The notes beneath the pieces are model-generated. The model searched no databases. It saw only the letters and a list, made by a program, of their open reading frames with translations, and was not told where the DNA came from. Below, piece by piece: positions 4,392-54,108 of a stretch of DNA of 64,000 nt. Position 1 is the first letter of the stretch; the number at the start of each line of letters is the position of its first letter. Made by a program: the position numbers and the translations under genes. The DNA comes from an uncultured Chloroflexia bacterium (lineage in GTDB: Bacteria; Chloroflexota; Anaerolineae; Anaerolineales; UBA4823), in NCBI GenBank assembly GCA_963822175.1, contig CAWGGJ010000003.1, positions 666,287 to 730,286 on the forward strand, written 5' to 3'.

Positions 4392-4419
4392 TATCATCCC
4401 CTTTTTAATTCCCTGAAAA

Positions 4420-4500
4420 GGGGATGATTATTACTCTCAAATTATGTATCGTATATCGGTCAACCGGTACACGGAGAAAAGAATGAAATCAAGTCGATTC
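4420..4500 (+). repeat. U repeat copy 2
   Basis: Homologous to 2366..2447. Preceded by a 13-bp perfect inverted repeat (4393..4405 / 4416..4428). Confidence 0.6.
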
Positions 4501-4554
4501 ACCATCGTGGAATCTCGGCTTGTCGAAATTTAAACCTGTGAGGAGGAAAAGAAT

Positions 4555-4719
4555 ATGGATAAGAAAACTGGTGGAATCATAGCAACAATTGTGGCGGTGC
4601 TCTTATGTGGCTGCCCTGGACTATGCCTGGTCAAGTCTAGCATGGCCAATGACATTTTAACAGTAAACATAATTATTCAAAATATTCCAATGAGATTTCC
4701 TCATTACATAATCTCATAA
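4555..4719 (+). CDS. small ORF (54 aa), possibly a truncated small membrane protein
   Basis: GAGGAGG RBS, then ATG. It starts MDKKTGGIIATIVAVLLCGCPGLCL and then runs into AT-rich non-hydrophobic sequence. Too short for the ORF track. Confidence 0.35.
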   Translation: MDKKTGGIIATIVAVLLCGCPGLCLVKSSMANDILTVNIIIQNIPMRFPHYIIS

Positions 4720-4781
4720 TACTATATTGGAGGAGCAGTTATGATCTTGATTAGGTACTTATAATTGCTAAGTTATCAGTG

Positions 4782-7283
4782 TTATGGTTTATTCCCAAAG
4801 ATTTGCACCGTTTGGTCGTATCTCGTATTTACGATTATCAAAGAATTATCAGAATTAAAATGAACAAATGGGTTCATTCCAGAATAATTAATCTCAATCT
4901 GCGTAAGCATTTCCCTTGTGTGTGGATCCCATATTTGTAGATAATAATCTCTAAATTGCTGCGCTTCTTTATCCATTATCGGACTACTATCACTGTATAC
5001 ATACACCAATAATTGGCTGTCATCCGAGAACCCCAGGGTATGGCCAACAGTCGAAAACTCTTTTGGATCCGAGATCGGAATACAGCTGGAATTAAATTCA
5101 TCTGGATTAAAACTTTCCACGTTCGTTTCGCGTTGACACGCTTTCCAATAATGTCCGATAATGCCATTATCAAAACCTTTTAAGTCAAAGGAAATAATCT
5201 GCTCCCCATTCGGTGAGAGTTCAAAAAAATGGCCATAATAAGCATTGGATGCTGTAGCAAGCCCACATCCTGGTTGGGTCAAATTGTCAGCGCACACATC
5301 GATTTTCCAGCGAAAAACCGCTTTTGCAGACCCTTGATTCAATTCAAGGTTAGCCCATAAGTATTTTCCATCAGGTGTAAATAGGATCTTTTTTACTTGA
5401 TAGATATGACCACCACTAAAGTGGGAATAATCCAGTTTAATTTCTTGGTTATTTCGGAGATCCCATAGAGCGATTTCTCCTCTCCAAGCAAGATAATTCC
5501 TGAATACTGTGCTATCCATTCCTCCTATCGCTAGAAAATTTCCATCCGGTGAAAATTGGACAAAGTTCTTACTGTATTGACCTACTTTGATAGTATCACT
5601 CAAAGTTCCATCATTCACATTCCAGATTAAAACCCGTCCGTCAATTGTACCAATAGCAATTCTGTTTCCATCAGGCGTGAAGTTGATCTGGCTATCTATC
5701 CATCCAAGATCATTCTCATTTCCAATTCTTCCGAGTTGGGATAAGTTATCAAGGTTCCAAAGGTATATATATCCGTTAATATTACCTGCAAATACGTTGC
5801 TGGTTGGTGATAAATCATAATAACTGGCCATTGAGGTTGGAATTTCATTTGTAACTTGGTCATCATTGATATTAAAAACTTGCAAAGTGTGATATGGGGT
5901 TATTGAGTATGCTACACCTGTATCATACGCTGTTGTTGTTTGAAATGCGATGCTATCACTTCCAGGGGAAAAGGCGATCTGTTTTTCATGTTTGTATCGT
6001 GCTTGAAGAGAATTATCAGATTCAATATAGAATTTATGAATTAATTCGCCATCCTGAACACGCCAAAGGTAGCTTGGTAGTACATCCTGGCTATCTAGTA
6101 CTACAAATGGTAATACTAAAATATACTGGTTGTTAGGGGAAATATAGATATCAGCTAGACGGTCTACCTCATAATCAGCAGAAAATACATCAGAAATTGA
6201 CCAATCGGAAGTATGAACTACAGTTATAAGCTTTTTATCGGATAAAAACGAAAACAGACTCCCATCTGTTGAAAATTTCAATACATCAAATGATGTGGGT
6301 GACAAATAGAACCGCTTAACTTCCTTCATATCAGACACCTGATAGATGATAACTAATTCCAAGGTATTTACTGCCAGGTATTTACTATTGGGTGAAAAGA
6401 GGACGTTCCTCACCTGTGATCCAATATTAACGCTATATATTTCACTCCAATCTCTGCTACTGACTAATCGCAAGGTATTATTTTCAGCTTCTATAAAATA
6501 TTGGCTGTCTGGAGAAAAAGTGCAAGGTAGTTCGTATCCACCAGTAGAAGTACCTCTATCTTTTACTGTCACGTACTCATGAACTTTCAAACCTGAGTCA
6601 ACCCGATAAACACTTATTACTACATCCCCATAATGGAAAAAACCCTGCTTATATGCTCCAGGCCAACCCCAATGTCTTTCGGTGATGCAAAGAAAAGCAT
6701 TATCTGATGAAAAATCTCCGAGGATGTTATAGTTATTAGGGTCCAAATGGATGGTCTGGATTTGACTGTTTGATTCAATATCCCATATACGCACACTAGA
6801 AACACCTGGATCAACTCTGGCCATTACCTGATAATCGGGTGAGACAATAAAGTTATCTGATATTTGCCCCACTTCCTTGCATTCCAAGATATCTAGTGTG
6901 TTTGGGTTCAATGAACAGATGCGCTCTGAACTAAATAAATATAATGTTCTTCCATCCGGAGCATAATGAATGTCCATCACATTACCAAACCCAATCATTC
7001 CCAAACGTACCAGCTGGTTTATATTACTTTTAGTTATTGGCTCATGTGCTAGTTTTATAGGGGTCGGAGTTAACGTCGGAGATGGGATTGGAGTTGTCGT
7101 TGGGATTGATGTTATTGTCTGTGAAGGAATTGAAGTAGTAGTAGGTATTGGACTTACCGTTGGTTTAACTGTAGTTGTTGTAGAAAGCCAACTTTCAGCA
7201 GGTTGTACAGAATGATTTCCGTTGGTTGGGATACATCCAACCAATAGGAAAATAAGAAGCAGGAATATTTTTAGCTTTATCAT
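4782..7283 (-). CDS. secreted lipoprotein with beta-propeller-like (WD40/PD40-style) repeats
   Basis: Signal peptide with lipobox LLVGC, a Thr/Pro-rich linker, and repeated FSPDG / SPD motifs. AT-rich codon usage. Confidence 0.75.
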   Translation of the reverse strand: MIKLKIFLLLIFLLVGCIPTNGNHSVQPAESWLSTTTTVKPTVSPIPTTTSIPSQTITSIPTTTPIPSPTLTPTPIKLAHEPITKSNINQLVRLGMIGFGNVMDIHYAPDGRTLYLFSSERICSLNPNTLDILECKEVGQISDNFIVSPDYQVMARVDPGVSSVRIWDIESNSQIQTIHLDPNNYNILGDFSSDNAFLCITERHWGWPGAYKQGFFHYGDVVISVYRVDSGLKVHEYVTVKDRGTSTGGYELPCTFSPDSQYFIEAENNTLRLVSSRDWSEIYSVNIGSQVRNVLFSPNSKYLAVNTLELVIIYQVSDMKEVKRFYLSPTSFDVLKFSTDGSLFSFLSDKKLITVVHTSDWSISDVFSADYEVDRLADIYISPNNQYILVLPFVVLDSQDVLPSYLWRVQDGELIHKFYIESDNSLQARYKHEKQIAFSPGSDSIAFQTTTAYDTGVAYSITPYHTLQVFNINDDQVTNEIPTSMASYYDLSPTSNVFAGNINGYIYLWNLDNLSQLGRIGNENDLGWIDSQINFTPDGNRIAIGTIDGRVLIWNVNDGTLSDTIKVGQYSKNFVQFSPDGNFLAIGGMDSTVFRNYLAWRGEIALWDLRNNQEIKLDYSHFSGGHIYQVKKILFTPDGKYLWANLELNQGSAKAVFRWKIDVCADNLTQPGCGLATASNAYYGHFFELSPNGEQIISFDLKGFDNGIIGHYWKACQRETNVESFNPDEFNSSCIPISDPKEFSTVGHTLGFSDDSQLLVYVYSDSSPIMDKEAQQFRDYYLQIWDPHTREMLTQIEINYSGMNPFVHFNSDNSLIIVNTRYDQTVQIFGNKP

Positions 7284-7463
7284 GTAGAAATAGCTTTTAC
7301 CTTAAATCAAGATATCTGTAAGCTATACTTCTTGTCTGATGGCTGGATAGTTTGAAATTATATATATTGTTTCGATCGCAATTGTTATATTTTTACGCTA
7401 TATGAGCAATAACAGGATGACTTGATTTTATAGCTTTTGCACACGTAATTAAAAATAAATAAA

Positions 7464-8420
7464 TTATCTCCATGAAGGATAGAAATCATTAGATGGATTA
7501 TTAGTGATTTGAGTTGTTCCAGACCCGTCAATGTTCGTGATAAAAATATCCAAATTATTGTTCTGATATGAATTAAAAGCAATTTTAGAACTATCGGGAG
7601 ACCAGGACGGTGCATAATTTACATATTGATTGGTGATCTGTTTCATGTTTATGAATGCATCTCTTGATGGATTTAAGTAACCAATAAAAATGTCGGAATT
7701 TGGATATCTCTGAACTGCAAAAGCAATTTTATCTCCGTCATGTGACCAAGCCGGATCCTGAGCGTATAAATCCGCAACAAGTAATTTGACATTCGTACCA
7801 TCAGTATTCATTACGTATAGACCAGGAAATATTCCTTGATCAATATCAATACGCGCTGAATAAAATACGATTTGTACATTATCAGGAGACCAAGATGGTT
7901 GATCATCAGCCACCGTATTATTTGTTAATCTTGTGATACCACTACCGTCCGAGTTCATAATATATATTTCGGTATTTCCGTCCCGATCTGAGGAAAAGGC
8001 AATCTTTTGCCCGTTAGAAGACCATTTTGGATACCTTTCATTAGCTGTTGTGTTAGTCACGCGCAATAAATCTGAGCCATCAATATTCATGATATAGATT
8101 TGATAACTTCCATCACGCCGCGATGAAAAAGTTACCTTTTTAAGGTCTGGAGAAATATCAGGCCAAAAGTCATCGGAAGGATCATTCGTTAGTCGTACTG
8201 CGTTAGTACCATCATCTACCATAACGAAGATTTCATAATTCCCTTCTCGATTTGTAGCAAATGCTATCTTTCGTTCAGGATACTTGTTTAATACTAGAGG
8301 GAGGTACATATTAAGATTATTTTCGTTATTTGATTGGAAACCACTCTCTGCAAAACCATTTACGTTAAAAATAAATATACTTGAAATTATCAGAATAAAA
8401 CGTAAAGATGTGAGTTTCAT
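7464..8420 (-). CDS. PD40 / TolB-like beta-propeller repeat protein, secreted
   Basis: Signal peptide and six or more repeats of the pattern P.WSPDG..I.F.S.R.G...IY.MN.DGS. Carries YLPLVLNK just after the signal peptide (8283..8306). Confidence 0.85.
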   Translation of the reverse strand: MKLTSLRFILIISSIFIFNVNGFAESGFQSNNENNLNMYLPLVLNKYPERKIAFATNREGNYEIFVMVDDGTNAVRLTNDPSDDFWPDISPDLKKVTFSSRRDGSYQIYIMNIDGSDLLRVTNTTANERYPKWSSNGQKIAFSSDRDGNTEIYIMNSDGSGITRLTNNTVADDQPSWSPDNVQIVFYSARIDIDQGIFPGLYVMNTDGTNVKLLVADLYAQDPAWSHDGDKIAFAVQRYPNSDIFIGYLNPSRDAFINMKQITNQYVNYAPSWSPDSSKIAFNSYQNNNLDIFITNIDGSGTTQITNNPSNDFYPSWR

Positions 8421-8764
8421 AACCCCTCCAAGAATTGATTTTTTTCATTAGTTGAATATCCGAAAATAAACGTCGAATAAATTTCACCATCATCATCAAA
8501 TCATAAGATTAATAATTATGACAAATCTACCTTAACTTTAGCATAATATACTACATATTGAATCTCTTTTTCTGAACCATTTGAGAAAATCTGTTATTAG
8601 AAATATTTTTCAGAAAAAGTTGGGTAGTGATACAGAACTACGATATAGAAATTTAAAAAGGCTCATTAGAATTAATCAAACGATTTATCAATCAAATATG
8701 TATGATTGATACTCTTCTGTCTATATATATGGTTAAGGAGGTTTTATCTATTTAAATATGGAGT

Positions 8765-9023
8765 TTTTATCCGTGTTCATCTGCATCCATCTGTGGTAAC
8801 TGTTATTCTTTGGCGGCGTGCCCCCTCCAAGAGCAGTGGGGGGCAAGATGCAATCCCGCCCTTCAGCATCCGCTAACATGTTAATTAAATACAGATGGCG
8901 CAGCGATGCTACGCCACTACGAGGAAACCTACCCGGGGAGCAAAGCTGGTGATGCCCCATAACCACCGTATTGCCGCGTTCCAGGCCAACCATGCGCAGC
9001 AGCCCCGTGATGGGGTTGAGTTA
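8765..9023 (-). ncRNA. R repeat copy 1: candidate structured RNA, unclassified
   Basis: About 250-nt homology to 12474..12722. Several hairpins are present. Differences between copies are G-U compatible on the minus strand but A-C mismatches on the plus strand. Confidence 0.45.
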
Positions 9024-9116
9024 GATGCCATTATCGATGGTAATAATAAGCAAAAGTGAGCAATTTCCTTGATGAAACAGTATCTTTGTTCTACAATCTC
9101 GTAAAGGAGAAATAAC

Positions 9117-9710
9117 ATGAGAAAAGTTATTGTGCTTGAACATATCTCCCTCGATGGTGTCATACAAGCCCCAGGCGGGCCAGACGAAGATACCAGCGGT
9201 GGCTTTGCCTATGGCGGGTGGATCGCATCCTATTCCGACCCGGTCCTTGAAACTGCCCTGATCAGGCAGATGAACCTGCCATTCGACTTGTTGTTAGGGC
9301 GCAAAACCTTTGAAATATGGGCGCCGTACTGGCCGCACCATGCGGACGCCTGGCCTGGCGTCATCACGGCGACCAAGTACGTGGCCTCGAATACCATGAC
9401 GTCTGCAGAATGGCAGCCATCCGTATTTTTAAACGGGGATGTTGCAGAAAAAGTGACAAAAATCAAGCAACAGCCAGGGCCGGATTTGCACGTTTGGGGA
9501 AGTGGTAATCTCATCCAGACGCTCATCAAGCATGATTTGGTCGATGCATTCTGGCTAATGATATATCCGCTGACGTTAGGCGCTGGAAAGCGGTTGTTCG
9601 CTGATGGCACGATGCCGATGGCGTTCAGGGTAACAGAAAGCATTGCCACGCCGATTGGCGTCATGGTGGTGAATTACGAGCGCGCAGCTGCAATCACAAC
9701 CAGAAGTTGA
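9117..9710 (+). CDS. dihydrofolate reductase family protein (RibD C-terminal domain type)
   Basis: [46 protein letters not shown] pattern. AAGGAG RBS. Confidence 0.85.
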
Positions 9711-9794
9711 TAAATATCCCCAGTAGAATGTTGCAAAATAAAAAGCCAGCCAACAATGCTGGCGGCGGAGGGAGCGGACCGAAAGGAGACCACG

Positions 9795-10139
9795 ATGAGT
9801 AATGAACAGAAAGCACCTGAGACGAAAGGTGTCACGGTAAAACTGCTTGCAACGCTCGACCTCGGCCTGGAAATCGAGGGCATGGCAGGGCGGCAATTTC
9901 GAATGCGCATGGTGACCATCGAACCTGGAGGCGTCTTTGGCCCGATCCACGACCATATAGACAGGCCGGGCATGGTCTACATACTGCAAGGAACGATCAC
10001 TGACCATCGAAATGGAGTGGCTAAGGAGTACGGGCCTGGAGTGGGTTGGCCTGAGGACAAGAACACCTACCACTGGCTTGAGAATAGAGGAACGACGCCG
10101 GCGGTGGAGATCTCGGTCGATATAGTCAGGGAAAGCTGA
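9795..10139 (+). CDS. cupin domain protein
   Basis: Cupin-like PGG..GPIHDH...G.VYILQG core. ATG at 9795 follows AAAGGAG. Confidence 0.7.
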   Translation: MSNEQKAPETKGVTVKLLATLDLGLEIEGMAGRQFRMRMVTIEPGGVFGPIHDHIDRPGMVYILQGTITDHRNGVAKEYGPGVGWPEDKNTYHWLENRGTTPAVEISVDIVRES

Positions 10140-10556
10140 GGCCGGATGTCTGATCGGGTCACCACCTGACCACACGCTATAGTGGACCTGGCCATCGCGC
10201 TCCGATCACCATCCAACCGCCCTGTGAATCGGGTCGCTGAGCTTGGGGTGTTGAGTGGCAATGATATGAACGTAAAGATCAAACAGGGAAGTATCGATTC
10301 ACGAATATATTAATTACGGCTACCTGGTAAAGTGCGATGACTATTCGCGCTCGGTGTATGAGCTCTTTCTTTACACTGAGTCCTTTGGCCCTGAACAAGA
10401 GGTCGAGCATTCCCATGGTGTGTTGGGTTTCGCAAAACCAGCCTCGCTTACGCATCAATAAAAGAAAAACATACGCAAGCGCTCGCGAGGTTCCTCAACC
10501 CATTTTCACTCCACCGGTGGATTCGTCCAGCGGCAACAACCTGGCAAAAACCAACC

Positions 10557-12155
10557 TCAGGCGAGCATCATCCCTTCCACCGAGCTTTGCGCTTCGAGCT
10601 CGGGCAGCTTGACCATGCGGAACGAATTCAGGAAACCAATCAACCCAGCGAATAACGGCACCAGCAGGGCCACCTGCAGGGCGAGGTACCTGGCCTCGGT
10701 GTTGATGCGGATGATCTCGTCCTGCACCTCGGCAGGCTGGCCAGCAAGCTGCTGCTGGAGCTGGGTGTCGCTCATGATCTGGGCGTCTTCCTCCAATGCC
10801 ACTGCCACCTGCTCCTGCTGGGTAGGAGTGAGCACCGTACTCGATTTCGCCATGTTGTTGAAGGAAATGGAGAGAGCGGCCAGCATGATGGCACCGGCAA
10901 ATGCCAACCCAAAGGAAAGGCCGAACGAGCCGGAGGCCGAGTTGACACCGGCGGCTTCACTGATGCGCTCTTCGGAAATTGGTGATAACGTATAGTTATT
11001 CAGCTGTGAAACCAGCAGGCCCAGGCCACTTCCTGTAATTACCAGTGGGATCAAAAAACTCAAGCCGGAATCGGCGCGAGGGATAAGCGGGATCATTAAC
11101 AATACCCCCACAAACAGGACGCCAAACCCGATCCGGATGAGCTGGCTTGGTCGCCGCTTGCCGGCTCGGCGCCCTGCCAGGAGGGCGATGAAGAAAATAC
11201 TCAGCGAAAGAGGTGCGATGGAAAGACCAGTTTGCATGGCGGTGTACTCAAACACCATCTGGAAATAGATGGGCAGAGCGATCATCGTGCCACCCAGGGC
11301 AATATTTTGCAGCATCTGGCTGGTTACACCCAGCCGGAAATATTTGGATCTGAACAAGTCAGGGTCGATCAGGGTCGTTTTTCCCTGCTTTTTGGTGCGC
11401 ACCAGCCACCAGGCAAAAACGAGCATGGCGATCACACCGACAACCATCATTAACCCAACGTATGCGCCGCCCTCCTCCCAGAGGAGGATGCTCAGCACGA
11501 TGCCGCCCATGCCAAGAATGGAGAGGATCGACCCGACCACATCCACCTGCCTGGGGCCGGTGTAGGGGACATCTTTGACCATTTTGATGTTGGCCAGCAC
11601 GATCATGATGATGATGAATTCAAGCAGGAATCCGACCCGCCAGGAGAGAAATGTGGTGATAAAGCCGCCCAATAAGGGCCCAACCGCAGCGGCGATCCCG
11701 GTGGCAGCACCAACCAGGGCATAGGTTCGCTTTTGTTCCGCACCTTCAAAGTTGCCGTGGATGAGCGACTGCATGGCAGGCAGCAGCAACGATGCACCCA
11801 AACCGCCAATGATGGCCCAAAAAATGATGATGGGCATCAGGCTTTGGGTCAGGGTCATGGCCAACGCCCCAATGGCATAACCGACCAGGCCAAGAATGTA
11901 GGCACGTTTTCGACCGAATAGATCACCGACCTTGCTACCGATCAAAATGAACGCAGCGGATACGAGTGCTTCGAGGGCAATGGCACCCTGTATATCGCTC
12001 ACGGTTGTGCCAGTATCCTCGACGACCGCTGATATGGAAACATTCATCATGGAGGTATCGATCACGAGGACAAACATCGCCATTGCCAGCAGGATCGCCA
12101 GCTTGGAAGTGCGGTTTTTCTTCTTTGGGCTACCTGCTTCGGTTTCGGTGGACAT
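10557..12155 (-). CDS. MFS transporter, DHA2 (EmrB/QacA-like) drug:proton antiporter family
   Basis: 532-aa polytopic protein with MFS motifs (GSKVGDLFGRKR). Its length fits the 14-TMS class. Confidence 0.9.
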   Translation of the reverse strand: MSTETEAGSPKKKNRTSKLAILLAMAMFVLVIDTSMMNVSISAVVEDTGTTVSDIQGAIALEALVSAAFILIGSKVGDLFGRKRAYILGLVGYAIGALAMTLTQSLMPIIIFWAIIGGLGASLLLPAMQSLIHGNFEGAEQKRTYALVGAATGIAAAVGPLLGGFITTFLSWRVGFLLEFIIIMIVLANIKMVKDVPYTGPRQVDVVGSILSILGMGGIVLSILLWEEGGAYVGLMMVVGVIAMLVFAWWLVRTKKQGKTTLIDPDLFRSKYFRLGVTSQMLQNIALGGTMIALPIYFQMVFEYTAMQTGLSIAPLSLSIFFIALLAGRRAGKRRPSQLIRIGFGVLFVGVLLMIPLIPRADSGLSFLIPLVITGSGLGLLVSQLNNYTLSPISEERISEAAGVNSASGSFGLSFGLAFAGAIMLAALSISFNNMAKSSTVLTPTQQEQVAVALEEDAQIMSDTQLQQQLAGQPAEVQDEIIRINTEARYLALQVALLVPLFAGLIGFLNSFRMVKLPELEAQSSVEGMMLA

Positions 12156-12213
12156 AATTTATCTTCTCCGTTTTGTGAGTAGGGCGTTTATTAGAGCTAA
12201 AAAGGAATGACCA

Positions 12214-12242
12214 ATAATATATTAAATTACTCAGCGGGTCAA
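12214..12242 (-). promoter_or_regulatory. sigma-70-type promoter candidate for the MFS gene
   Basis: TTGACC, 17 nt, TATTAT on the minus strand, about 60 nt upstream of the ATG. Confidence 0.5.
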
Positions 12243-12473
12243 TATACGATTCTTATAAAAAACCTGGTGTTCCATGGAGAGGGCTGGTTTACTGCCAGCC
12301 CTCACAGGTGGGATTAATTCCCCATGCCGGTGGATAAAATCCAACGGATAATCATTGAAAAACCGCGAGCGGGTTTCGTGGATTCGGCAGCCGGTGGATT
12401 CATCCACCGGCGGAGAGGTGCCCGGTGGTGGTTCACGCCACGGTATACTGCTTTTGCTTTCTGGTGAAAATGC

Positions 12474-12722
12474 TTTTATCCGTGTATATCTGTGGTTACT
12501 GTTATTCTTTGGCGGCAGGCCCCCTCCAAGAGCAGTGGGGGGCAGGATACGATCCCGCCCTTCAGCATCCGCTAACACGTTAAATAAATACAGCTGGCGC
12601 AGCGATGCTGCGCCACTACGAGGAAACCTGCCAGGGTGCAAAGCTGGTGATGCCCCATAAACCACGGAGCTGCCGGGTCCCAGGACAACCACCCGTAGCA
12701 GCCCCGTGATGGGGTTAAGTTA
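12474..12722 (-). ncRNA. R repeat copy 2: candidate structured RNA, unclassified
   Basis: Homologous to 8765..9023. It starts at the stop codon of the small membrane gene 12720..12890. Confidence 0.45.
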
Positions 12723-12890
12723 TAAGCCTTTGACGATGGTAGCCAAAAGCATGAGGGCGGCAGCAATCAGGGCAAGCCAGAATGAATACGGAGAGAGTGC
12801 CGTGACAGTTTTGGTATAGCCGATCAGTGCAAGCACTGCCAGGGCGAGAGCGATGAACCAGGTAATATTCTTCGGTGGGGATAGTTTCAT
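12720..12890 (-). CDS. small two-helix membrane protein (56 aa)
   Basis: AGGAGG RBS, then ATG at 12890. Two hydrophobic helices. The upstream part of track ORF 12720..12992 is discarded. Confidence 0.6.
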   Translation of the reverse strand: MKLSPPKNITWFIALALAVLALIGYTKTVTALSPYSFWLALIAAALMLLATIVKGL

Positions 12891-13127
12891 CTTGTTCCTC
12901 CTTATACTGTAAATGGAATTTCGATTAATGCGGCTGAGCTCAGCGACCCAGGCATGCGCAACCTGGCAACCTCCCTGGCTACCAGGGAGCACCCTGAAAT
13001 CAGCTGCTTCGAGAGCAACGACGGCAGTTTTTACCCGAAGCCTGGCAAGCTGGGGCGAACCACGCCCCCAGCAGCCATGTGCTCAATAAGGATAACCCTG
13101 AAAGCGGGCGCAGGGTGTGGTATCAGA

Positions 13128-13334
13128 TCAGTCTTCGAGAATAAAGGTTACCTTCATCTGGACGCGATACTCGGTGATCTGTCCTTTATCATCGACAATG
13201 ACTTCCTGATTCTCGATCCATGCGCCCCTGACATTGTTCAGAGTTTTGTTGGCGCGAGCAATTCCCACCTTGATCGCATCATCGAAACTCTTGGTAGAAG
13301 ACGCTTTGATTTCAGTGACCCGTGCTACTGACAT
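13128..13334 (-). CDS. dodecin family flavin-binding protein
   Basis: 68 aa with the dodecin pattern (VARVTEI.ASS.KSFDDA...GIARA.KT..N...AWI......V.D.G.I.EYRV..KVTF). AAGGAG RBS. Confidence 0.85.
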   Translation of the reverse strand: MSVARVTEIKASSTKSFDDAIKVGIARANKTLNNVRGAWIENQEVIVDDKGQITEYRVQMKVTFILED

Positions 13335-15495: not shown

Positions 15496-15870
15496 TTAAA
15501 CAGCTTTACATTTTTCGATGATCTCACCCGCCAAGTCGTAACGGTTGACTGCAGCATCAGGTATATGCCGTTTGCCCAAGTTGAGTAGGTAGGGTTGAGC
15601 CTGCGAAACCCAACAATCAACAACGCCGGTCTCCTCGAAGAGATCGCTCTCCTCCGCATCTTCACCCGCTGCCTGCTCGAAACCAGCCTCCAGAATCCTT
15701 CCACCCTCGACCTGGCCGATACCCTCCGTCTGCTCTGCCGAGCCTCCTCCACCATCACCCGTATCATCCCCACCCAGTGTCTCCTTCCCGCGACCAACTC
15801 CTCCCTGCCGGAAGATCTGGAGGAAGCTATCCGTTGGGTCAATCTCAAGCTTGGCGAGAAAACTTGGCAT
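15496..15870 (-). CDS. hypothetical protein with a Gly/Asp/Glu-rich centre
   Basis: ATG preceded by GGGGAG. It competes with two other long ORFs at this locus. Chosen on the basis of its RBS and the least biased composition. Confidence 0.35.
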   Translation of the reverse strand: MPSFLAKLEIDPTDSFLQIFRQGGVGRGKETLGGDDTGDGGGGSAEQTEGIGQVEGGRILEAGFEQAAGEDAEESDLFEETGVVDCWVSQAQPYLLNLGKRHIPDAAVNRYDLAGEIIEKCKAV

Positions 15871-16155
15871 ATCCCACTCCCCTCTGTCGCTTCCAGTTCA
15901 AAAAAACCTCCCGGGAGAATCTGAATTGAATGCTTTTGTTTTTTTTCCAATTCAATGATTTCTTGGACCACAATGACAAAAATATGCACTTAGGCGGGTC
16001 ACGGCCTACCCATTCTGCTTTTGATTTTCAGGTAAAATACTTATCTCCGTGTATATGCGTGTATCTGGGGTAATCGTTTTTCCCCGACAGAGGGGTGCCC
16101 TTGCTAATCATAGAAGAGGGGTAAAATTAACCGGGCAGTTGTGAGGTGGAAGACG

Positions 16156-16374
16156 ATGGAAATTGATGGATCACTGGTCTGTATTGGGGTGACTTTGCTA
16201 CCGGTTTTATTCCTCGGCTATGTTTATATACGTAAATCAAAGAATAAATCCAGGCATCCAGCAAACATGGCTGAGGGGATTGCATCCGTTGGTGTATACC
16301 CGGAGTTGGAAAACAAGCCAAAGAAACCGTACAGTATGTCGGAAGAAATACGGAAATTGTGGAAGTACAACTGA
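16156..16374 (+). CDS. small membrane protein (72 aa)
   Basis: GAGGTGGAAG then ATG at 16156. One hydrophobic helix followed by a Lys-rich tail. Confidence 0.4.
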   Translation: MEIDGSLVCIGVTLLPVLFLGYVYIRKSKNKSRHPANMAEGIASVGVYPELENKPKKPYSMSEEIRKLWKYN

Positions 16375-54032: not shown

Positions 54033-54073
54033 TAAAACTAGATATTTATCTGAGGTCTTCCAGTTGGTAAAAA

Positions 54074-54108
54074 ACATACGCCTCGCATGATGCGAGGCGT
54101 ATGTTTTA
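54074..54108 (+). terminator. intrinsic terminator after copy B
   Basis: 14-bp perfect stem ACATACGCCTCGCA / TGCGAGGCGTATGT followed by a T run. Confidence 0.8.

Follow-up and report, generated by a model that had tools for sequence, protein, structure and literature searches.

The window analysed here is a stretch of 64,000 nucleotides (nt) from an uncultured Chloroflexia bacterium of the order Anaerolineales, and it carries a repeat, R, whose two copies lie among genes for a 56-amino-acid (aa) membrane protein, dodecin, and MFS, RibD_C, cupin and PD40 proteins. Copy 2 (12474-12741) overlaps the 3′ end of the 56-aa gene (12720-12890, minus strand; MKLSPPKNITWF...ATIVKGL), an open reading frame (ORF) predicted to encode a two-helix membrane protein, and copy 1 lies at 8765-9065. 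A first-pass annotation had described R as an unclassified repeat family of about 250 nt, with hairpins kept only on the minus strand, and proposed it as a novel structured RNA. We find it more probable (about 0.68) that R represents the 3′ untranslated region (UTR) of the conserved 56-aa gene together with the region downstream of it, doubled by a local segmental duplication in this strain, and not a dispersed RNA or mobile-element family.

Each copy was compared with the window by blastn, which aligned 8789-9042 with 12488-12741 in direct orientation at 87.8% identity over 255 nt (E 1.2e-87), confirming the homology reported earlier; no further full-length copy was found in the window. Rightward, the homology passes 9023/12722 and reaches about 9042/12741; a weaker similarity carries on as far as about 9065/12765, a stretch that falls within the 3′ end of the small gene. 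The copies differ by an indel near the left end, previously given as 11 nt and found here to be 10-11 nt (TCATCTGCATC in copy 1), and by the single hypervariable segment also noted before, at about 8965-8998 in copy 1 and about 12663-12697 in copy 2. R is non-coding, and the earlier opinion that its long ORFs are not proteins was correct: the 28 substitutions fall as 10/10/8 by position modulo 3, with no codon periodicity, no Pfam match was obtained for the ORFs across R, and among 5.8 billion proteins none resembled the 153-aa ORF over copy 2 or any of the 12 frame translations of both cores. Analysis of the whole window with cmscan against Rfam 15 at gathering scores, a check that the first-pass annotation had suggested, gave 0 matches; over 8300-13200, permissive thresholds returned only noise (E 0.5-7), far under the gathering scores. 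A weak nadA-riboswitch-like match in the RibD_C coding region (9401-9449, minus strand; 19.1 bits, E 0.98, gathering score 37.5) was taken as chance.

Copy 2 starts at the stop codon of the 56-aa gene (12720-12722) and ends about 230 nt from the promoter-like site of the MFS gene (12242-12214), both as first described. In metagenomes, the homologues of the 56-aa protein number at least 249 and share 75-98% identity with it; some are labelled Anaerolineales. Its gene usually lies 3′ of a dodecin gene, as in this window. A comparison set of 57 further loci carrying the gene was used (numbered with the prefix L). Blastn of R against this set revealed matches only to its first ~70 nt, directly after the stop codon, in 38 of the loci; the rest of R had no match there by blastn or nhmmer, except in a contig of the identical strain. 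This public metagenome contig of 922 nt covers dodecin, the 56-aa gene and 200 nt from the start of the repeat at 100% identity, demonstrating that the junction of the gene with copy 2 is not an assembly artefact.

The segment shared with the related loci, referred to here as element A (12647-12722 in copy 2, minus strand), consists of the stop codon and, starting 6-7 nt past it, a 21-bp interrupted hairpin with a conserved apical loop. The hairpin contains P1 (CCCCAU/AUGGGG), P2 (CACGGGGCUG/CAGCUCCGUG), a 2-nt bulge and P3 (five pairs), and its loop is 14 nt long (UUUAUGGCCUGGAA; also written ...AUGGCCUGGAAC...). A covariance model, R1, was built from 36 sequences and run over 207 kb, where it detected A in 39 related loci (37-105 bits) and in the two copies of R, always right after the stop codon of the gene; beyond these, it gave only weak matches where the same hairpins are mirrored on the other strand. 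Copy 2 scores 80.3 bits, with a minimum free energy (MFE) z of −4.2. In the alignment of the 41 sequences, 83.5% of cells are paired, versus 37-50% with slid partners, and 11 of the 21 pairs are changed on both sides, versus 5.9±1.5 in shuffles (0/500 as high). The covariation score is 0.148, versus 0.04-0.06 for slid partners. Homologues of A thus appear to occur in many genomes with pairs kept through compensatory change, and the covariation support is moderate, most pairs being simply conserved. The structure was set by hand and its pairs counted; RNAalifold on the 36-sequence alignment gave no structure. No Rfam match was found over A in 20 related loci, and a literature search found no published description of it. 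We regard A as a candidate new gene-associated 3′-UTR motif of Anaerolineales, and infer that it acts in 3′-end stability, processing, or the binding of a protein or other factor.

A 3′-UTR-derived RNA had been among the alternatives offered for R, and this was essentially right, as its first ~75 nt are the hairpin that follows the gene in the 41 sequences. The variable segment had been credited with a stem-loop of its own in each copy; the segment exists, but it is the distal part of the family-wide hairpin, intact in copy 2 and degraded in copy 1. Not every member of the 56-aa gene family has A: in L022 (4171-4240, on a contig of complete-genome size), what comes after the gene is a simple, strong terminator hairpin, and A is absent. 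In L035, which has two tandem paralogues of the gene (519-686 and about 1090-1261), A follows only the first, and L024 (4169-4275) contains a partial internal duplication of hairpin A.

In copy 2, A is followed on the minus strand by a linker, B1 (12616-12646; CAUCACCAGCUUUGCACCCUGGCAGGUUUCCUCGUAG), and by hairpin 2 (UGGCGCAGC-AUC-GCUGCGCCA) with its tail GCUGUAUUUAUUUAA (12581-12615). B1 is collinear with the 3′ UTR of the closest relatives, L021 and L075, and probably descends in shortened form from the ancestral 3′ UTR: with a 57-nt deletion allowed, the alignment scores 26.2, versus 14.5±2.4 for shuffles (0-1/300 as high). Ordinary local alignment of the core with the downstream regions of the relatives was not significant, and the long-gap model was significant for the linker part only. 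Hairpin 2 has a stem of 9-10 bp with 6-7 G-C pairs, a 3-nt loop, and at least 5 U in 8 nt at no more than 2 nt from the stem, features expected in sequence of a putative intrinsic terminator, and in both copies a consensus scan flagged it as terminator-like, doing so only on the minus strand. It lies at +107 to +128 past the stop codon, and the clean intrinsic terminators of L041, L048, L056, L059, L060 and L066 lie at +115 to +148; L025 contains a near-identical copy of hairpin 2 in the same orientation. Hairpin 2 is probably an intrinsic terminator, if a rather weak one, and over its first ~140 nt R can be read as a shortened version of the family 3′ UTR, with hairpin A, linker and terminator.

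Beyond hairpin 2, the segment B2 of copy 2 (12501-12580, minus strand) contains hairpin 1 (12541-12559) and hairpin 3 (12519-12543). These two overlap by 3 nt (12541-12543, and 8842-8844 in copy 1), so that both cannot form fully and their stems compete. All three stems are present with the wobble positions first reported. On the minus strand, the G·U pairs of hairpin 1 number two in copy 1 against one in copy 2, and the plus strand shows A·C at these positions; in hairpin 2 a single U·G occurs in copy 1, and hairpin 3 is invariant. While the wobbles stand, the significance attached to them as preservation of the hairpins on the minus strand only does not. Hairpins 1-3 are represented by two sister copies only, with no double-sided changes and 2 wobble-compatible transitions, and the strand argument consists of these two transitions plus one G·U shared by both copies. 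Any transition in a stem leaves one strand with a wobble and its complement with a mismatch, so that 3/3 on one strand corresponds to ~p 0.25 (two-sided), and RNAalifold on the two copies gave −74.5 kcal/mol for the minus strand versus −71.4 for the plus strand. Against dinucleotide shuffles, the core fold of copy 2 has a z of −3.1 on the minus and −1.5 on the plus strand, and that of copy 1 has −0.5 and +0.55; the long outer helix in the MFE fold of copy 2 is broken by the copy 1 substitutions.

No homologue of the ~110-nt part with hairpins 1 and 3 was detected outside this strain, either in the 57 related loci or by frame translations against the 5.8 billion proteins. The possibility that B2 is a relic of a convergent 72-aa gene of the relatives was rejected, the similarity being no higher than that of shuffles. 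Function most likely resides on the minus strand, as first proposed, and it is gene context, not the substitution pattern, that supports this; the ~250-nt structured family proposed along with it is not retained, as the core had no homologue in the sets searched. We infer that hairpins 1 and 3 would have no role of their own, and the core is most likely the terminator of the gene plus an unexplained spacer.

Copy 1 contains the same elements in the same order, in a degraded form. There is no intact 56-aa gene upstream of it, in agreement with the first-pass annotation, but a relic of the last codons of the gene is present at 9024-9065 (minus strand; ...LLLIITIDNGI-stop versus ...LMLLATIVKGL-stop). 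This collinear local alignment, extending ~42 nt past 9023, has a score of 28, versus 16.6±2.7 for shuffles (2/500 as high), and is truncated by a promoter-like site that belongs to the RibD_C gene (9069-9097, plus strand). Element A follows at 8949-9023 (minus strand) with 60 bits in model R1 and an MFE z of −0.9; only 5 of the 40 other matches score lower, most being at 70-105 bits, and 3 of the 10 P2 pairs are broken (G·G, G·A, C·A). The linker, hairpin 2 (8895-8917), which holds the U·G wobble, and the U-rich tail occupy 8881-8948 and are terminator-like on the minus strand; B2, with hairpin 1 at 8842-8860 and hairpin 3 at 8820-8844, and a truncated left module (LM) occupy 8765-8880 (minus strand), and the homology stops at ~8765. 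From the gene remnant, the A scores of 60 versus 80 bits, the broken pairs, and the weaker z in copy 1 for both A (−0.9 versus −4.2) and the core (−0.5 versus −3.1), we read copy 1 as a probable decaying segmental duplicate.

At the left edge of copy 1 (~8765) the GC content falls to 0.26-0.33, which marks the border of a low-GC block. This block (4400-8765; 0.26-0.40, versus 0.5-0.6 elsewhere) ends exactly at that edge, contains genes for an 833-aa WD40-like beta-propeller protein (4782-7283, minus strand) and a PD40 beta-propeller protein (7464-8420, minus strand), and looks like acquired DNA. Insertion of a tRNA-linked island at copy 1 was also considered and rejected, as the window contains no tRNA and there are no flanking repeats; no notable repeats were found around copy 1.

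The identity of the two copies differs from part to part, being 56-67% in the gene relic, 83% in A and 92% in core B. The excess change in A is due partly to breakage in copy 1 and partly to compensatory change in copy 2, such as the flip of a P3 pair from C-G to G-C. Both copies have in common the loop UGGUUG and all of B, derived states that are absent in the closest relatives, indicating that the duplication is recent and specific to this strain. The LM spans 12420-12500 in copy 2 and is shared with copy 1 only from ~12474 onward. A third, partial relative (15993-16085; blastn 74% over 70 nt, E 4e-6) contains the LM only, and no LM relatives were detected outside this strain. This third relative covers only the ~70-nt module; two copies of R were found in all, and the term repeat family overstates the case. 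The third LM lies upstream of the 72-aa gene (16156-16374, plus strand; MEIDG...KLWKYN), which in L016, L018 and L020 is convergent with the 56-aa gene; the gene order here thus differs from that of L016 and L018, and this strain has a local rearrangement bounded by LM copies. Between a di-haem peroxidase gene and the third LM is a 124-aa acidic, Gly-rich ORF of low complexity (15496-15870, minus strand) with no Pfam or NCBIfam match.

Relatives of R were also sought in other sequence sets. None were found in viral contigs by exact-pattern scans with two conserved blocks, or in plasmids and phages by blastn. An 18-mer probe from the core gave 14 matches among the GTDB representatives, all bare chance matches of 18-24 nt in unrelated phyla, so that either the source species lies outside the GTDB representatives or it is included there without this block. 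Exact-protein look-ups for the MFS, RibD_C, cupin and PD40 proteins, made for orthologous loci with or without R, returned none on record.

We propose that the duplicated segment would comprise the last codons of the 56-aa gene, its 3′ UTR, ~110 nt past the UTR, and part of the LM. On this reading, copy 2 would be the working copy, and the mRNA of the 56-aa gene, made from the minus strand, would carry it as its tail. Along this tail, element A would come first, then a short linker, then hairpin 2 and its U-rich stretch, where transcription would most likely end, and the 21-bp interrupted hairpin of A would serve the 3′-end function suggested above. Copy 1 would have lost the gene, and would now lie, with its A hairpin decaying, between the low-GC block and the promoter of an unrelated gene.

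Several observations weigh against this proposal. Transcription, its strand and its 3′ end at hairpin 2 are all read from the sequence. With its U-tract interrupted (GCUGUAUUUAUUU), hairpin 2 could be no more than a weak terminator, and the ~110 nt with hairpins 1 and 3 are left unaccounted for. Within A, with two dominant positions set aside, there are ~31 G·U against 27 A·C wobbles, favouring neither strand, so that the strand call rests on gene context. The uneven identity of the copies is unlike uniform neutral decay, and some constraint or gene conversion may have acted on B. Finally, the count of copies covers the 64-kb window, and more copies of R may be present elsewhere in the genome.

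In most relatives a conserved box, AAAGUUCCAACC...AGCGGAACACAC, is found at about +95 to +125 past the stop codon of the 56-aa gene (e.g. L048, ~793-825); it has also been given as AAAGUUCCAACC...AGCGGAAC and as a UUCCAACC box. Its GUUCCA is complementary to UGGAAC in the apical loop of A, and in L054 and L069 a G-C pair is replaced with A-U through changes on both sides. The resulting loop-box pseudoknot has 82.8% of cells paired, versus 81.0±0.9 in shuffles (23/500 as high), and we treat it as a weak lead. A further hairpin after A in the relatives, P4 (GUUCC/GGAAC), was unsupported, with 73.5% paired versus 72.1% in shuffles. The loop-complementary box is missing from both copies of R in the window. 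A, joined by the box in most relatives, might be an undescribed functional motif, namely a cis-regulatory switch, a protein-binding element or a 3′-UTR-derived small RNA (sRNA), for which the core with hairpins 1-3 would here be a functional replacement of the box region; we hold this idea tentatively, as possible though on the unlikely side.

A more direct role for the core, in which its ~180 nt with hairpins 2, 1 and 3 would act as an independent minus-strand sRNA, made by 3′-UTR processing or from its own promoter and selected in both copies, would account for its 92% identity next to the 56-83% of the flanking homologous parts, for stem substitutions that are wobble-compatible on the minus strand, for the better performance of the copy 2 core against shuffles on that strand, and for the lack of an Rfam match. 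Against this, the copies are sisters from one recent duplication, whose 8% divergence in the core can be the neutral baseline; the wobble argument has the p of ~0.25 given above; the copy 1 core folds no better than shuffles, and its substitutions disrupt the long outer helix of copy 2; and the core had no homologue in the searches made, with hairpins 1 and 3 overlapping. We consider such an sRNA distinctly unlikely. The strand evidence also bears on a plus-strand product, which would be transcribed from the LM, antisense to the 3′ UTR of the 56-aa gene, as part of a type-I-toxin-like or antisense regulatory pair. The 56-aa product is small and hydrophobic, a convergent gene faces it in the relatives, and the third LM copy is upstream of a plus-strand gene; however, no plus-strand promoter-like site was found in 12100-13000, pairs that are G·U on the minus strand become A·C mismatches in the plus-strand stems, and the 56-aa gene, with its synteny to dodecin and its very high conservation, does not resemble typical type I toxins, leaving this very unlikely.

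Explanations that turn on the movement of DNA were weighed on the same evidence. The copies could mark an event without function for R, such as the Campbell-type integration of a circle with the RibD_C, cupin and MFS genes through homologous recombination at R, or repeated recombination at the LM. The direct repeats of ~280 nt do flank a 3.4-kb block of three genes (9043-12473), and each of the three direct LM copies lies by a change of gene order relative to L016/L018 or by a GC break; yet the flanked block resembles the surrounding genome in GC, no recombinase gene is nearby (Pfam, window ORFs), and no orthologous empty site was retrieved through the exact-protein look-ups of the flanking genes. 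This origin is improbable in our view, and it is compatible with the role proposed for copy 2. Independent insertion of R at two sites as a miniature non-autonomous mobile element, either an IS200/IS605-type palindrome-associated transposable element (PATE) or a miniature inverted-repeat transposable element (MITE), possibly with the guide-RNA-like scaffold that the first-pass annotation suggested, is hardly credible. Its appeal lies in the two direct copies 3.7 kb apart, in GC-rich hairpins close to one end, and in the position of copy 1 and the partial third copy at break points of rearrangement or composition. The right 'end', however, belongs to a host gene as its conserved 3′-UTR hairpin, which occurs in 39 related loci without the rest of R, and the edges are graded, the homology running on into the coding sequence of the gene and fading there. 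The proposed sub-terminal hairpin CCCCAUCACGGGG (CCCC/GGGG) is paired at 72.7%, versus 72.6% in shuffles, has no covariation support, and is made of bases that belong to P1 and P2 of A. No transposase, TnpB, IscB, IS110 or integrase genes were found in the window by Pfam analysis of ~45 ORFs, which encode housekeeping or surface proteins. Neither terminal inverted repeats nor target duplications were visible in the sequence or the alignment, the surroundings of copy 2 not having been searched systematically, and, as described above, no copy was found in the viral, plasmid and phage sets or, with the one 18-mer probe, among the GTDB representatives. The specific candidates were therefore rejected: an IS200/IS605 element or PATE for the lack of tnpA/tnpB in the window, of sharp ends and of a hairpin above shuffles; a MITE for its two copies only and the absence of visible terminal inverted repeats; and a TnpB/IscB omega-RNA or IS110 bridge-RNA scaffold for the lack of an adjoining nuclease or recombinase gene. 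A template or variable repeat of a diversity-generating retroelement, a retron and an integron attC site were also rejected, as the copies do not differ specifically at adenines, neither a reverse transcriptase nor an integrase was found, and neither size nor context fits.

Among known systems, R is most readily compared with bacterial 3′-UTR stem-loops and terminators and with 3′-UTR-derived sRNAs such as CpxQ and SroC. Like these, it starts at the stop codon of a conserved gene, on the strand of that gene, and has a long stable hairpin followed by a GC-rich stem with a U-rich tail, at the distance where relatives have a clean terminator. It differs in that A, including its 14-nt apical loop, is far more conserved in sequence than a simple stabilising hairpin needs, in that its terminator is weak in this strain, and in that no sign of processing or of a trans-acting seed was seen. 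Structured-RNA motifs found by comparative screens of intergenic regions (PMC5737381; Rfam 15) are likewise gene-associated, lineage-restricted and supported by some covariation, but neither in the window nor in the 20 related loci does A match any Rfam 15 family. IS200/IS605 ends, PATEs and TnpB/IscB omega-RNAs resemble R in having hairpins near one end and ~150-250 nt of structured non-coding sequence, and differ in that R has no tnpA, tnpB or iscB in the window, no HEARO match, an end hairpin that is a host 3′-UTR element, and graded boundaries.

Repetitive extragenic palindromic (REP) sequences and bacterial interspersed mosaic elements (BIME) share with R the short GC-rich hairpins in intergenic DNA, whereas R has two copies of ~250 nt tied to one gene, with no RAYT/TnpA-like gene found. 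A separate module adjoining R at 12340-12420, a hairpin pair (GCCGGTGGATTCATCCACCGGC then AAACCCGCTCGCGGTTT), also occurs in L018 (708-760), L024 (4371-4439), L037 (497-550 and 1471-1524), L071 (1320-1368 and 1493-1551) and L062 (1-41), and looks like a dispersed REP-like intergenic element of Anaerolineales loci. Perfect hairpins are not abundant in the window (~20 in 64 kb); one of 17 bp, AAAACATACGCCTCGCA-TGA-TGCGAGGCGTATGTTTT (54071-54107), lies between two large surface-protein genes and is probably a bidirectional terminator.

The analysis of R illustrates that a convincing 'repeat family with strand-specific wobbles' can be a mere two-copy segmental duplication of a 3′ UTR, and that, in statistical terms, two or three wobble-compatible substitutions count for almost nothing. 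Its by-product is a lineage-specific candidate 3′-UTR motif, A, beside the gene for an uncharacterised, very conserved small membrane protein of Anaerolineales. General concepts are unchanged by this; if A is more than a stabilising hairpin, it would offer a handle on the regulation of the small protein.

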